Shown piece after piece: positions 26,527-29,363 of a stretch of 64,000 bases of DNA. The position numbers and the translations under genes were made by a program. Position 1 is the stretch's first letter. Each line of letters starts with the position of its first letter. This stretch comes from Thermoproteota archaeon (GTDB lineage Archaea > Korarchaeota > Korarchaeia > Korarchaeales > Korarchaeaceae). Location: positions 288,001-352,000 of the forward strand of contig JALSOH010000004.1 of NCBI GenBank assembly GCA_026986575.1, given 5' to 3'. The notes beneath the pieces were generated by a model. The model was not told the origin of the DNA and ran no database searches. It saw nothing but the letters and a program-made list of their open reading frames with translations.

Positions 26527-27810
26527 TTAAAGCCCCAAGACATCCTCATATCCCTTCAGGTCCAGCAACCCATGTCCGGAGAAGTTGAAGAGTATAACCT
26601 TCTCCTCACCCTCTTCTTTAGCCTTCAGCGCCTCATCTATTGCCGCTTTCACCGCGTGGGTAGTTTCCGGAGCTGGGATCAGACCTTCAGTCATGGCAAA
26701 TATCTTCCCGGCCTTAAACACGTCCTCTTGTGGGTAAGCAACTGACTTGATCACTCCCTTGGACTTCAGAAGGCTCACCGTCGGAGCGGCACCGTGATAC
26801 CTCAGACCACCAGCGTGTATAGGTGGCGGCACGAAGTCATGCCCGAGTGTGAACATCTTGATGAGAGGAGTCACCCCAGCGCTGTCTCCGAAGTCATACC
26901 TGTACTCCCCCTCCGTAAGTGAGGGAGACGCCCTCGGCTCCACTGCTATAACCTCGTACTCCTCCCTTCCACTTAGTATCTCCTCTATGAAGGGGAAAGT
27001 GAGCCCAGCGAAGTTGCTCCCGCCCCCAACACATCCTATGAGCACATCTGGCTTCTCGCCCAAGATTTCCATCTGTTTCTTGGCTTCTAGTCCTATTACT
27101 GTCTGATGCAGTATCACGTGATTTAGAACGCTTCCCAGCGAGTACTTCGCTTTCTCGTCCTTCATCGCCGTCTCTATTGCCTCACTTATGGCTATGCCTA
27201 AGGAGCCTGGGTGGTTCGGGTCCTGTTCAAGGTACTTCCTGCCGATTTCGGTTCTGTCGCTCGGCGATGGGACGATATCCGCGCCGTAGAGTTTCATAAC
27301 TAGCTTTCTATAGGGCTTCTGTTGGTACGAGATCCTGACCATGAAAACTAGGGCCCTCAATCCCATCATCGAAGTCGCGTAGGACAGCGCACTTCCCCAC
27401 TGCCCCGCACCCGTCTCGGTCGTCAGGTACTCAAGACCCTCCTTGGCGGCACAGAAGGCCTGCACTAATGCGGTGTTCAGCTTGTGGCTTCCTGTCGGAG
27501 TCACATCCTCTCTCTTGTAGTATATCTTAGCCGGAGTCCTAAGATATTCCTCCAATCTCTTGGCCCTGTACAGGGGTGTGGGCCTACCGATCCTCACGTA
27601 AAACTCCCTGAGCTCCTCGGGTATCTTGATGTACCTCTCCTTGGAGAACTCCTGATCCACACACTCCTTCGGGAATAAGGGGTAGAAATCCTTAGGTCCC
27701 AGTGGCTCCTTCGTCGCTGGATGGATGGGTGGCGGTAGATCGGGCAGATCTGAGACTATGTTATACCAATAGGTAGGTATCTCCTCTTGGCTGAGATCTA
27801 CCCTTATCAT
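26527..27810 (-). CDS. trpB2: Tryptophan synthase beta chain, type 2 (stand-alone)
   Basis: [43 protein letters not shown]; no trpA adjacent. Confidence 0.95.
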
Positions 27811-27938
27811 CTGAGTACACCTCCCTCTGAGGAACTGGACGGGTCACTGGACGATCCGGATGTGGCATGGAACGCGGGCATGATGACAATTGCCTTAGAC
27901 AAGGAGAGAGGAGATCTCTTCAGAGGTCTCTCAAGGCC
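27807..27938 (-). other. +1-frame extension of the Trp leader peptide (43 codons, no Trp codon), stop overlaps the trpB2 start (ATGA)
   Basis: GGC CTT GAG ... GTA CTC AGA TGA read by hand; the other two frames close within 12 codons. Confidence 0.6.
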
Positions 27939-27954
27939 AAACTAGATCCCCCAT
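27931..27954 (-). CDS. Leader peptide MGDLVWP (Trp-sensing uORF)
   Basis: ATG GGG GAT CTA GTT TGG CCT TGA with SD GGGGGTG 5 nt upstream and TATA-like TTTTAA at 27999-28004. Confidence 0.75.
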   Translation of the reverse strand: MGDLVWP

Positions 27955-28067
27955 ACTTGCACCCCCTAGAACGGGTTGGGTCGGGGGACCTTCAACAGTT
28001 AAAAGCATTACTGTACAGGGAACTCCGCACAGGTTGCTGGATCCCGATCTCCAAGGAGGCATTCGAT

Positions 28068-29363
28068 ATGGAGAAGCGGAATATCATAATACTCTCACTG
28101 GTTGGATTCGTCATATCCCTGGGATTCGGTGCTATATCTCCAATCCTCCCCTACTACGTGGTCTACTTGGAGGGAGGGATAACTGAGCTCCCCGAGGAAC
28201 TGGGCGTCATCGAGCATGCCTCCCAGTACGCCGTGGAGTATGGTCTGATGATGTCCGCGTTCATGCTAACCCGGGCCTTCTTCGCTAGGTACTTCGGCTC
28301 CCTCAGCGATAGAGTTGGAAGGAAGAAGTTGATAACAGCAGGCTCGATCATATATTCGCTTCTGGCCTATGCGTACATCCTTTCCTCGAGCGTTTACGAC
28401 CTTTATGCTATCAGAGGCCTTCAGGGAATTGCTTCAGCCATGGTCTGGCCCGTCGCCGAGGCATTGCTGATGGACAGCGTTCCGAGCGGGATGAGGGGGA
28501 GATCCATGGCGATATACATGACCTTGACGAATCTAGCAATGATTGGGGGTCCAGCCATAGGCGTGGGTATCTACAAATTAGGTATCCACATATTGGGGAT
28601 AAGAGAGGTTGAACAGGCGCTCAAGTTCCCTTTCATCGGCTTAGCGTTTATATCGGCGTTCTCCATTCTCTTCTCTTTACTACTCAAAGAAGATAGAGTG
28701 GAACTCGCTAAAAAGGCGATGGATTCGCTCAGAGCAGATGTCAGACCTCCCAAATCCATCAGAAGAAGCATAAACACGATTTATGTTATGGCATTGGCTA
28801 ACGGATTTGCGATGGGATTCATAGCCCCAATAATGAGCCTCTACATAATACAATTCATTTCGTCGGACCCGGCCGCAATTGCAGTGGTCACCACGATCTC
28901 TGGGCTCTTTGGATTAGCAGCTGCCTACCCTGGAGGGAGGTTGAGTGACAGATTTGGGCGGAAACCACTGATCTTGATAGCTGGGGTCTTCTCACGTCTC
29001 ATGACCCTGCTTATACCCACCGCTAGAGATGTCGAGGGACTCACAGTCATATCCACCATCAGATCCGTCGCATTCAACATGTACATACCCTCGTTTAGAG
29101 CGCTCCAGGCTGATATAGCCCCAAAGAGCATAAGGGGGAAGGTGTTCGGGACAGTGCAAGCTATGTTCAATGTTGGAGCGGTTTTGGGACCGATAGTTGG
29201 CGGCCAGCTCTACAAAGACTTCGCTCCTCGGATCATACAGGTTGGGGGTATCGTCCTACCGGGTGCCGCGCTATCTTTCATAGCCAGCGCTTCCATCGGA
29301 TTGTTCAGTCTGCTATTGTTCGCTCTGTTCGTGGAAGAGCCAGCTAATCCCCAAGGACAGTAA
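28068..29363 (+). CDS. MFS transporter
   Basis: GSLSDRVGRK and GRLSDRFGRK; start moved to ATG 28068 behind AGGAGG. Confidence 0.9.
   Translation: MEKRNIIILSLVGFVISLGFGAISPILPYYVVYLEGGITELPEELGVIEHASQYAVEYGLMMSAFMLTRAFFARYFGSLSDRVGRKKLITAGSIIYSLLAYAYILSSSVYDLYAIRGLQGIASAMVWPVAEALLMDSVPSGMRGRSMAIYMTLTNLAMIGGPAIGVGIYKLGIHILGIREVEQALKFPFIGLAFISAFSILFSLLLKEDRVELAKKAMDSLRADVRPPKSIRRSINTIYVMALANGFAMGFIAPIMSLYIIQFISSDPAAIAVVTTISGLFGLAAAYPGGRLSDRFGRKPLILIAGVFSRLMTLLIPTARDVEGLTVISTIRSVAFNMYIPSFRALQADIAPKSIRGKVFGTVQAMFNVGAVLGPIVGGQLYKDFAPRIIQVGGIVLPGAALSFIASASIGLFSLLLFALFVEEPANPQGQ

Follow-up and report, generated by a model that had tools for sequence, protein, structure and literature searches.

A candidate RF2-like +1 frameshift cassette with a tryptophan sensor codon in the leader of an archaeal trpB2 gene, and its likely relatives on other archaeal genes

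In trpL-type attenuation, a bacterial upstream open reading frame (uORF) carries codons for the end product of the pathway, and charged tRNA is sensed through the speed of the ribosome. The T-box riboswitches of bacterial trpS and cysS are RNA structures that bind uncharged tRNA. Leader-peptide attenuation, T-boxes and TRAP are bacterial systems for which we know of no established archaeal counterparts, and RNA-level sensing of amino acids in archaea is, to our knowledge, largely open.

The bacterial RF2 cassette, as outlined in the recoding review of Atkins et al. (2016, PMC5009743), combines a short ORF1, the slippery sequence CUU_U (in a minority UUU_U), an internal Shine-Dalgarno (SD) sequence and a slow A-site codon that is mostly followed by C. 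In its passages on hungry-codon shifts and on the Ty1 site CUU_AGG_C, the same review attributes them to laboratory effects of starvation or to constitutively rare tRNA, and gives no natural starvation-specific use of hungry-codon frameshifting as known at that date (PMC5009743). It also recounts that uORF frameshifting at pheL of E. coli was once considered as an influence on downstream expression and was judged incidental (PMC5009743). Termination-reinitiation at NTGA overlaps is described for both bacteria and archaea, with coupling lost beyond about 30-40 nt in the account of PMC12548453. A 2021 review of archaeal recoding counts a single cellular case of -1 and none of +1. In the literature that we searched, subscription journals lying outside it, we found no description of a frameshift leader with Trp or Cys codons, nor of a frameshifted archaeal TrpRS or CysRS.

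We analysed a window of 64,000 nt from a Thermoproteota archaeon of the Korarchaeaceae (assembly GCA_026986575.1, contig JALSOH010000004.1, positions 288,001 to 352,000 of the forward strand), in which the stand-alone tryptophan synthase gene trpB2 is preceded by a short leader (Table 1). Comparison of its sequence with that of its relatives makes it likely that this leader is an RF2-like programmed +1 frameshift cassette, in which a Trp codon senses charged tRNA.

Table 1. Features of trpB2 and its leader, in window coordinates.
Feature	Position	Strand	Basis or remark
trpB2, stand-alone tryptophan synthase beta-2 type, 427 aa	26527..27810	-	Pfam PALP 3e-40
TATA-like box TTTTAA, probable promoter of the leader-trpB2 transcript	27999..28004	-	44 nt 5' of the uORF ATG
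uORF Shine-Dalgarno GGGGGTG	27960..27966	-	5 nt 5' of ATG; conserved block in the 14-leader alignment
uORF ATG GGG GAT CTA GTT TGG CCT TGA, MGDLVWP-stop	27931..27954	-	translated from the sequence
Internal SD-like element GGGGGATC, proposed frameshift stimulator	27945..27952	-	ends 3 nt before the slippery codon
Proposed shift site GUU_UGG_C	27936..27942	-	GUU in the P site, Trp codon UGG in the A site; slipping by +1 onto UUU would place GGC there
+1 'coupler' frame, 43 sense codons and TGA, Trp-free	27807..27938	-	peptide not conserved
trpB2 Shine-Dalgarno GGAGGTG	27818..27824	-	7 nt 5' of ATG, inside the coupler frame; conserved block
ATGA overlap, coupler-frame TGA on the trpB2 ATG (27810..27808)	27807..27810	-	sequence

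The encoded TrpB2 is 57-97% identical to TrpB2 from 29 other loci; in the genome of the window (99.7% complete), no second TrpB was found and the Pfam models for TrpA, IGPS and chorismate binding had no match. In the congeners, a TTTTTAA(A) box precedes the uORF ATG by about 38-45 nt, and its counterpart in the window is probably a promoter; as it is near-palindromic, it might also be that of the divergent MFS gene. The position of this TATA-like box puts the leader at about 160 nt, a length that is no more than an estimate. The uORF, whose SD reads GGAGGTG in most congeners, has seven codons with a single Trp codon at position 6, and the SD-like element inside it is complementary to the 3' end of the 16S rRNA of the genome (GGATCACCTCC); by analogy with RF2, this element may stimulate a shift. 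Skipping one T after GTT gives a frame without Trp codon that starts to be open at 27941 and closes with the TGA at 27809..27807, with 44 codons between stops, or 43 counted from GGC. Over the stretch from the Trp codon to the trpB2 start, 3 stops interrupt the uORF frame and a single one the third frame. The uORF, the Trp-free 43-codon +1 frame and the ATGA overlap on which the preliminary description was built are thus all confirmed on the sequence. Since 27% of shuffles of the spacer also leave the +1 frame free of stops, the open frame of the window is by itself within chance expectation, and its weight rests on the relatives.

Among the 20 congeners, which are non-independent samples, the uORF reads MGDLVW[P/L]-stop almost without variation in all 20, while the flanking sequences diverge and carry indels. 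Its seventh codon varies (CCT, CTT, CTC, CTA or CTG) and its stop is retained as TGA, TAA or TAG; the shift site GUU_U is the same in the window and in every congener. The spacers between uORF and trpB2 fall into 7 distinct lengths, from 78 to 135 nt, every one of them divisible by 3. In these 20 spacers the +1 frame has no stop, against 2-6 and 1-4 stops in the two other frames, and it holds 1 Trp codon in 690, against 8 in 710 and 8 in 690. It ends on the trpB2 start as ATGA in 13 congeners and as [A/G]TGCTGA in the other 7, so that a stop/start overlap (ATGA or NTGCTGA) exists at all 21 loci of the genus, and yet the peptides that it would encode are unrelated in sequence. We formalised this continuity by applying a +1 shift at each in-frame NTT_TGG and counting as a success any path that ends within -4 to +4 of the trpB2 start. 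All 21 loci succeed with +1, and none does so unshifted or with -1. The frame continuity established by this comparison argues for the earlier reading that +1-shifted ribosomes are carried to the trpB2 start, since relatives retain the uORF with its TGG, a +1 frame free of stops and of frame-changing indels, and the stop/start overlap, whereas the peptide drifts. A 14-nt motif of the leader occurs once per genome in 20/20 congeners, against a single control match across 43 genomes. One genome, G082, has a second copy of the leader, at a contig end. An antisense gene was rejected as the cause of the open frame, the upstream neighbour varying among congeners and most of them having stops in the antisense frames; transcriptional slippage at the site of the window was rejected because the run is only UUU.

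The same reading gains further comparative support from a distant genus, of another phylum, where the trpB2 leaders contain 2-4 serial sites of the UUU_UGG type each, 59 in all, with UUU_U or CUU_U at 59/59. Each site lies in the frame reached by a +1 shift at the preceding one: the site-to-site distances are all 1 mod 3, across 5 and 6 distinct lengths, and the distance from the last site to the ATG is 0 mod 3 in 19 of 20 loci. The path test succeeds with +1 at 20/20 loci, the path ending -4 to +1 of the trpB2 start in each, and at 0/20 either unshifted or with -1; pooled over both genera, none of the 41 loci is brought to the trpB2 start by an unshifted or a -1 path. Trp codons are again rare along the shifted path (3 of 1505).

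In other genera, 10 further loci have a +1 frame that opens at the site and encodes a SerK-like protein of 134-163 codons, ending as NTGA on trpB2 in 9 of them and 15 nt before its start in the tenth (L026). Two loci depart from this pattern, one whose +1 frame ends 32-35 nt before the trpB2 start (L030) and one whose SerK-like gene has its own ATG and no uORF (L025). In a survey of 96 loci outside the two genera and L140, the cassette architecture was found at none; these loci do include the SerK-like variants and that of L030, which surfaced only in a motif scan. Motif matches at L170 (genome G086), L117 and L028 look like chance.

The cassette is not confined to trpB2. Three other genes of the genome of the window share its layout, namely an SD-like GGKGAY, 3 nt, NUU_U, a sensor codon and an early stop. 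GGKGAY, the 3 nt and NUU_U recur at every site found, and the 0-frame stop comes 0-3 codons past the sensor codon at most of them. NUU is followed by UGG at every site of trpB2, trpS and a PGDH-like dehydrogenase gene, and by UGC at the CysRS gene; direct comparison thus establishes, besides a conserved cassette, a match of the sensor codon to the gene. The last three genes have CUU_U as slippery sequence, and their +1 frame runs directly into the protein. The trpS cassette, +1 in frame with TrpRS, was found in 16/16 congeners and in 28/28 genomes of the distant genus, where two leaders are exceptions with a +1 frame ending at +32 or +40. As the TrpRS proteins of the two phyla are 77% identical, gene and leader may have travelled together. 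The PGDH-like cassette, with UGG, is present in 18/18 cases; in 7 of them, no ATG lies upstream and the main frame is interrupted by a stop. The CysRS cassette (ATG GGT GAY NNN CTT TGC TGA) was found in 17/17 congeners and at 0/12 loci outside the genus. A GTG in the +1 frame of the CysRS cassettes and of one trpS subgroup is a possible ordinary start, which leaves obligatory shifting unproven there.

Leaving the A-site codon unspecified, we scanned the genome of the window and obtained 244 raw motif matches, of which exactly 4 pass the filters: the three UGG cases (trpB2, trpS and PGDH-like) and CysRS with UGC. When the SD-like element was dropped, 8 of 29,378 sites passed, and a link between codon and gene appeared only at TrpRS and CysRS. 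The narrower motif GGGATNNNKTTTGG has 3 matches in the genome against 2 in the control, of which only the trpB2 leader is meaningful; it misses the trpS, PGDH-like and CysRS cassettes. We find it plausible on balance, with somewhat less assurance than for the trpB2 leader itself, that archaea of at least two phyla possess a family of RF2-like +1 cassettes, each reporting the supply of the cognate aminoacyl-tRNA through a hungry sense codon, which is UGG in the case of Trp and UGC in that of Cys. The regulon would comprise TrpB2, TrpRS, the SerK-like and PGDH-like phosphoserine enzymes and CysRS, reached either by fusion of ORF1 to the enzyme or through a coupler frame.

We infer that the shift does occur, that its rate is set by the supply of aminoacyl-tRNA and that the output of trpB2 depends on it. 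Ribosomes would begin at the SD-led uORF and, five codons on, hold GUU in the P site and UGG in the A site. With charged tRNA-Trp plentiful, UGG would be decoded and the stop reached one codon later, 120 nt from trpB2 and presumably too distant for re-initiation. With charged tRNA-Trp scarce, the A site would stay empty and the peptidyl-tRNA could slip from GUU to UUU, aided by the SD-like GGGGGAUC located 3 nt upstream and pairing with the 16S 3' end. GGC would then be read as the first of 43 Trp-free codons without coding value, and the end of this frame in the UGA of AUGA would deliver the terminating ribosome to trpB2 for re-initiation. Ribosomes covering the leader may also prevent a premature end of transcription, and the serial cassettes of the distant genus would sharpen the response. 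It counts against this mechanism that the re-pairing of tRNA-Val from GUU to UUU is poor, with a mismatch at the first position, and that each uORF in the genus of the window has only one Trp codon.

The most serious rival, which we nevertheless regard as unlikely, is that the frameshift is real but constitutive, a set ratio serving coupling or an N-terminal extension without any response to charged tRNA. The internal SD-like stimulator could suffice alone for such a shift. Moreover, CysRS, some trpS and the 7 PGDH-like genes seemingly have no other start, and would thus require a usable basal rate of shifting. Yet a device of set ratio needs no A-site codon matching the amino acid of its gene, and it would not account for UGG at all the Trp-related genes and UGC at CysRS, nor for the avoidance of Trp codons on the shifted path.

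Classical leader-peptide control without frameshifting, in which a ribosome stalled at UGG refolds the RNA to free the SD or block termination and the open +1 frame is incidental, would equally place a uORF with a regulatory codon 5' of a biosynthetic gene. It had been put forward as the alternative in the preliminary description, with two competing pairings that can indeed be drawn on the sequence, and the closest relatives have a local hairpin after the uORF stop. The minimum free energy fold of the leader of the window is a different one, in which the G-run/GAUCU of the uORF pairs with the downstream AGAUCUCC, and it is worse than that of 195 of 200 shuffles (z = +1.96). RNAalifold, run on a set of 14 leaders that were picked from the 21 of the genus to span its subgroups, gave a consensus of -1.42 kcal/mol with 6 weak pairs and none covarying, so that no conserved structure was detected in this set. 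The leader folds and the alignment likewise show no mutually exclusive terminator and antiterminator structures with covariation, and an Rfam scan of positions 27700-28150 of the window, with E values up to 10, returned two chance-level matches only. At 60 C, and against 20 mononucleotide shuffles per leader, the stretch from the trpB2 SD to its AUG is predicted to be as accessible as in the shuffled controls; this comparison covered 13/21 leaders of the genus and 14/20 of the distant genus. As no sequestration of its strong SD is predicted, trpB2 could be translated independently of the leader, and the predicted structure gives no ground for a dependence on upstream translation. The idea that shifted ribosomes serve to unwind the leader loses its footing for the same reasons. 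Stalling and refolding would in addition leave unexplained why the spacers are multiples of 3, why 41/41 paths are open and why the cassette is fused in frame to trpS, PGDH-like and CysRS genes, and we give this explanation very little credence.

About as improbable is an independent small ORF in the spacer, with its own start and coupled to trpB2, the uORF being a separate matter. Several spacers do contain an ATG, TTG or GTG in their +1 frame, the window itself having a 31-codon ORF from TTG, but none of these starts keeps its place from one spacer to the next, and the peptides show no relationship to one another. Such an ORF needs no particular phase between uORF and trpB2, yet the phase is kept over 7 spacer lengths, as it is over many site-to-site lengths in the distant genus, and the open frame starts at the shift site in all loci.

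One might also think of a TnaC-like nascent peptide, G-D-x-[LVF]-W, which would sense free Trp in the ribosome and choose between termination and shift. The uORF is invariant even at synonymous positions, Pro-stop follows W in the window, and G-D-x-hydrophobic-W is common to several genes. However, the conserved letters coincide with the SD-like element and the slippery codon, which makes conservation of peptide and of nucleotides inseparable. Where the nucleotides permit, the peptides do vary between genes (MQGGSLWR-stop, MRGGRFWPW-stop) while the nucleotide layout is kept, and the CysRS version has the identical layout but ends in Cys. Induction of a Trp-making gene by free Trp would moreover have the wrong sign, unless binding blocked the shift; we therefore hold this possibility to be slight. 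A DNA or RNA binding site for a Trp-responsive regulator, to which the conservation at nucleotide level and the 2-4 repeats in the distant genus might point, is hardly credible, as it leaves unexplained the kept start codon and SD, the use of any of three stops, the phase rules and the continuity into four genes.

If the reading as a charged-tRNA-sensing +1 frameshift cassette is right, it would be the first case of amino-acid sensing by programmed frameshifting and the first regulatory cellular +1 frameshift in archaea. It would give archaea a counterpart of attenuation and T-boxes, in the form of a simple, structure-free sensor of tRNA charging that functions in hyperthermophile-type genomes. 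It would also predict that TrpRS, CysRS, SerK-like and PGDH-like proteins have trans-frame N-termini, which are overlooked or cut short in standard annotation. TrpB2 enzymes can use O-phosphoserine as a substrate, and the regulon would link the stand-alone TrpB2 to the enzymes that supply phosphoserine. The pattern of SD-like element, 3 nt, NUU_U, codon and early stop could be searched for with further amino acids that have codons starting with U.

With trpL-type attenuation, the leader shares a short uORF bearing a regulatory codon 5' of a biosynthetic gene and, as proposed here, the sensing of charged tRNA; it differs in having no alternative hairpins or terminator, the proposed step being a change of frame followed by coupling. 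The likeness to T-boxes is one of purpose, synthetase and biosynthesis genes responding, on our proposal, to the charging of the cognate tRNA, whereas neither the Rfam scan nor RNAalifold revealed such an RNA structure in the trpB2 leader. The cassette would resemble the hungry-codon and Ty1 shifts described in the 2016 review in that the tRNA in the P site slips by +1 while the A site is occupied by a sense codon that is decoded slowly. Its case of pheL is similar in that frameshifting, here a proposal, takes place in the uORF of an amino-acid biosynthesis gene, and differs in that the frame continuity seen here is under clear selection. As in the coupled genes described in PMC12548453, a stop/start overlap is combined with an SD inside the upstream frame, and the distance limit given there fits an ineffective unshifted uORF stop, 78-135 nt off; here, however, the upstream 'gene' would be reached only by the proposed frameshift and has no product of its own. 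The closest system is the RF2 cassette in the outline of that 2016 review, with which NUU_U, an internal SD, an A-site codon tied to the regulated product and mostly a C after it are shared, trpS, CysRS and PGDH-like genes having all of these; at these three genes and at the SerK-like ones, the +1 frame carries protein, as in RF2. The sensor of RF2 is a stop codon, recognised by a release factor, and that proposed here a sense codon decoded by aminoacyl-tRNA; the present candidate cassettes are archaeal and, in the distant genus, stand 2-4 in series. Finally, the +1 frame at trpB2 of the window encodes nothing conserved and would only carry ribosomes to the next start, which makes this leader RF2-like in its shift step and not a two-ORF gene.

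The seven-codon uORF, the Trp-free +1 frame (43 sense codons counted from GGC) and the TGA overlapping the trpB2 ATG, as given in the preliminary description, are all read directly on the window sequence. The shift site (NUU_U plus the sensor codon, GUU_UGG in the window) is the sole point of entry to the +1 frame here, because a UAG in that frame lies directly 5' of it. A stop-free +1 frame in this spacer alone is matched by 27% of shuffles, and is hence unremarkable singly. The leader is spanned on the + strand by an open frame (27831-28067) that continues for 79 codons upstream of the likely, SD-led start (ATG 28068) of a divergent MFS transporter gene; a gene caller taking ATG 27867 for this gene would mask the leader with a false N-terminal extension.

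Features of the trpB2 leader in the window and of the related loci elsewhere in the same genome (G000; C, contig; L, locus)
Feature	Position	Strand	Basis or remark
uORF ATG GGG GAT CTA GTT TGG CCT TGA (MGDLVWP*)	27954..27931	-	translation
+1 frame, T after GTT omitted	open from 27941 to TGA 27809..27807	-	translation
trpB2, 427-aa PALP-family gene, TrpB2 type	27810..26527	-	ATG overlapped by +1-frame TGA
uORF SD GGGGGTG	5 nt before uORF ATG	-	read from sequence
trpB2 SD GGAGGTG	7 nt before trpB2 ATG	-	read from sequence
TATA-like TTTTAA	44 nt upstream of uORF	-	read from sequence
trpS	G000 C6:448462-449631 (with leader C6:448380-449631; L175/L176)		uORF MTGDLLWP*; site GGTGAC-CTC-CTT_TGG-C
PGDH-like 2-hydroxyacid dehydrogenase	G000 C6:264461-265798 (L234/L235)	-	roughly 190-residue N-terminal extension
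CysRS	G000 C4:734554-736014 (L254/L255)		cassette ATG GGT GAC GGC CTT TGC TGA (MGDGLC*)

TrpB2 was detected in 36 of 41 related genomes, and upstream DNA was examined for 30 loci. Within the window's genus (TrpB2 81-97% identical), the proposed check on relatives came out in favour of the frameshift: uORF and TGG are kept, the +1 frame is stop-free in 20/20 genomes, and the stop/start junction persists while the peptide drifts. The block ATGGGGGATYTAGTTTGGC is retained in all 20 (one uses a GTG start), preceded by an SD and a TATA box; its flanks have diverged by many substitutions and indels. Codon 7 is variable (CCT, CTT, CTC, CTA, CTG), the stop is TGA, TAA or TAG, and one genome has two additional codons. 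Seven spacings between uORF stop and trpB2 start occur (78, 93, 96, 99, 111, 120 and 135 nt), every one a multiple of 3. Between the Trp codon and the trpB2 start, the uORF frame has 2-6 stops and the third frame 1-4, and the +1 frame ends on the start as ATGA in 13 genomes and as [A/G]TGCTGA in 7. The +1 peptides cannot be aligned across subgroups, and the spacers form 6 clusters at 60% identity (mean identity of representatives 0.52). Across these clusters the product of the shuffle probabilities for an open +1 frame is 3.5e-4, the phase rule uncounted; the congeners share ancestry. Trp codons number 1/690 in the +1 frame versus 8/710 and 8/690 in the others, over 20 distinct spacers; since there are only 20 among the 21 loci, one pair (L064/L010) is a probable duplicate.

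A distant archaeal genus, which shares only the domain with the window and whose TrpB2 is 63% identical, has a longer leader in which AGG-N-GKGAT-YGY-TTT_TGG occurs 2-4 times, giving 59 sites over the 20 genomes. Every copy is followed by a stop, mostly within 1-3 codons, and sits in the frame reached via a +1 shift at the preceding copy, with site-to-site distances (52-64; 25-31, 85, 96 and 138 nt) that are all 1 mod 3. From the last site to the trpB2 ATG, 14 values among 90-153 nt, plus 39, were found, 0 mod 3 in 19/20. When a +1 shift is made at each in-frame NTT_TGG, the path of 19 genomes terminates at the TGA of AATGA, and that of the remaining one at a TAG 1 nt before the ATG. Without shifts the trpB2 start was reached in 0/21 loci of the window's genus and 0/20 of the distant genus, and likewise with -1 shifts (0/21 and 0/20). 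TGG makes up 3 of the 1505 codons along shifted paths and is common in the other phases. The distant genus (L034-L053) also shares a block conserved at the nucleotide level, CACGCTCATTATTCCCTC-NNN-TTTGGGA, some 40-70 nt ahead of the trpB2 start. In two of its genomes, L051 and L053, the TTT_TGG or CTT_TGG of this block provides an additional shift site; in the other genomes the block may base-pair with the third site's G-run.

The same cassette precedes trpS. Of 12 matches to the site motif in 5 distant-genus genomes, 11 fell in trpB2 leaders and one lay ahead of trpS. In this genus each of the 28 complete trpS loci carries a uORF (e.g. MPGDCFWPW* or MRGGRFWPW*) with the site GGTGRT-NNN-TTT_TGG, and a TATA box stands 23-25 nt upstream of the uORF. 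The +1 frame (22-36 codons) ends at -3 (7 loci), +5 (1) or +11 (18) relative to the trpS ATG, and at +32 and +40 in two outliers. In the window's own genome, as in 16/16 congeners with sufficient upstream DNA, the +1 frame is the TrpRS frame itself. The own-genome uORF ATG follows its TATA box by 23 nt, a spacing suggesting a leaderless or near-leaderless transcript. Six of the 16 congener loci (MQGGSLWR*, MQGGSLWQ*, MQGGSLWQW*) have no ATG between the site and the conserved TrpRS N-terminus; a GTG is present, and for this one subgroup an ordinary GTG start is possible. TrpRS is 77% identical across the two phyla (G000 C6:448462-449631 vs G037 C1:1683611-1684759), far above TrpB2 (63%) or CysRS (50%), which suggests that trpS was laterally transferred between them, perhaps with its leader. 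A second TrpRS-like paralogue (34% identical, about C6:466295) has no such leader.

An own-genome motif scan (20 matches) led to a PGDH-like gene, whose top NCBIfam match is phosphoglycerate dehydrogenase, below cut-off. The gene appears to consist of two ORFs. The first, SD-led one (ORF1) spans about 30 codons in 18/18 congeners and finishes at GGTGRT-NNC-CTT_TGG with L-W, its stop following 0-3 codons later; the enzyme is encoded in the +1 frame, and in seven of these loci the enzyme frame has a TAG and no ATG upstream. When the A-site codon was left free (TNN), filtering on uORF and frame retained exactly 4 of 244 raw matches, namely CysRS and the three UGG cases. The CysRS cassette, ATG GGT GAY NNN CTT TGC TGA (MGDxLC*), varies only at NNN in 17/17 congeners, with CysRS identity down to 68%, and its +1 frame runs on into the conserved CysRS N-terminus; here too an ordinary GTG start is possible. 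Outside the window's genus, 12/12 CysRS loci have ordinary starts and no such uORF. The sensor codon thus matches the amino acid of the gene (UGG for Trp genes, UGC for CysRS), which is the strongest argument that charged tRNA is sensed.

In other genera the uORF heads a frame of 134-163 codons whose opening coincides exactly with the shift site. This was seen in 5/5 genomes of another genus of the family, in 2 of a third and in one from each of two further genera, with uORFs such as (M/V)GDLVW..*, MNVGDLVWLL* and MGDHLWPP*, and also in an unrelated archaeal contig (L140, MKRRDLL|W). The product carries ParB-like DGHHR and PPKTTRH motifs and best matches the archaeal ADP-dependent serine kinase SerK (NCBIfam E = 1.4e-21, below the family cut-off and shorter than the family). 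This SerK-like (ParB-fold) gene lies between the Trp uORF and trpB2 in L144-L149, L171, L172, L026 and L140, ending NTGA on trpB2 in 9/10 loci and 15 nt before the start in L026. Internal deletion of this gene may have left the short coupler seen in the window's genus, a suggestion based only on the R-P-L-K common to both near the shift site. O-phosphoserine can serve TrpB2 enzymes as a substrate, and the SerK-like and PGDH-like genes hint that stand-alone TrpB2 is supplied with it. A second copy of uORF and shift site (VGDLVWSRE*; L173, G082 C42:7702-7715) lies at the extreme end of a contig that also bears a SerK-like-trpB2 operon.

The full architecture is found in 43 of 139 TrpB2 loci, a set to which a scan of all species genomes (mostly bacteria) contributed 80; the 43 are every locus of the window's genus and of the distant genus, and L140. 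A motif scan of the other 97 added the SerK-like cases, L030 and two chance matches only. Loci deviating from the rule are L030, whose 58-codon +1 frame ends 32-35 nt before the trpB2 start, L025, where the SerK-like gene starts at its own ATG without a Trp uORF, and 2/28 trpS leaders. The motif GGGATYTAGTTTGG occurs once per genome in 20/20 congeners and in 30/43 genomes of the phylum; its reversed control occurs once in the 43.

Other leaders were seen upstream of trpB2. One low-GC archaeal genus (L055, L057-L061, L063), with TrpB2 54-56% identical to the query from the distant genus, has a uORF of 25 codons that closes with R-F-W-W-W-R-Y-stop. A hairpin-like inverted repeat and T-runs follow, and this leader resembles those of the classical leader-peptide type, with three Trp codons, though in an archaeon. 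Several other lineages (L054, L056, L062, L028, L029, L068, L070-L073, L077, L078, L080) have a TATA box flanked by paired TGTACA-like boxes, which resemble operators of a TrpY-type Trp repressor.

TrpA, IGPS and chorismate-binding models, each matching 14/14 control genomes, had no match in the 99.7%-complete genome, nor was a second TrpB found there; trpB2 therefore stands alone, which is consistent with the indole-scavenging role ascribed to beta-2 TrpB proteins (PMC2700814).

Comparison of the sequences establishes the cassette, the continuity of the frame, the path's arrival on the start codon, Trp-codon avoidance along that path and the codon-gene match. Every comparative test run supports the main proposal, that shifted ribosomes would reach and re-initiate trpB2. 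The peptidyl-tRNA would slip +1 while the A site awaits Trp-tRNA, stimulated by the SD-like element (the own-genome 16S 3' end, GGATCACCTCC, is complementary to GGTGAT), and termination at AUGA would be followed by re-initiation on trpB2. Archaeal termination-reinitiation coupling is described as short-range, with little beyond 30-40 nt (PMC12548453); therefore termination at the uORF stop would be unproductive. Re-pairing of the P-site tRNA from GUU to UUU is weak. Since no masking of the trpB2 SD is predicted, ribosomes spread along the spacer might also, or instead, shield the transcript from factor-dependent premature termination; FttA is the factor to which archaeal polarity is ascribed (PMC12548453). 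The alternative first offered, stall-dependent RNA refolding, is not supported. RNAalifold on 14 leaders of the genus gave no partner for the pyrimidine-rich patch (CTCTCC.., 27880-27905) 15-35 nt past the uORF stop. This patch is partly conserved in L009-L019 and reads CTCTCCCTGAT in many congeners.

We found no description of such a sense-codon frameshift sensor in the literature searched; according to a 2016 review (PMC5009743), hungry-codon frameshifting had no known natural function, and a 2021 review of archaeal recoding lists no cellular +1 case. The closest likeness is to the RF2 cassette (PMC5009743), in which a short ORF1 with an internal SD as stimulator leads through CUU_U, or in a minority UUU_U, to a slow UGA followed by C, and the product is encoded in the +1 frame. 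The layout here is GGKGAY, 3 nt, NUU_U, the sensor codon and mostly C next (44/59 distant-genus sites; all 21 trpB2 loci of the window's genus), but the slow codon is a sense codon, not UGA. The device would belong with RF2-type sensor frameshifting and form a new class both for amino-acid sensing and for the coupler arrangement of the window.
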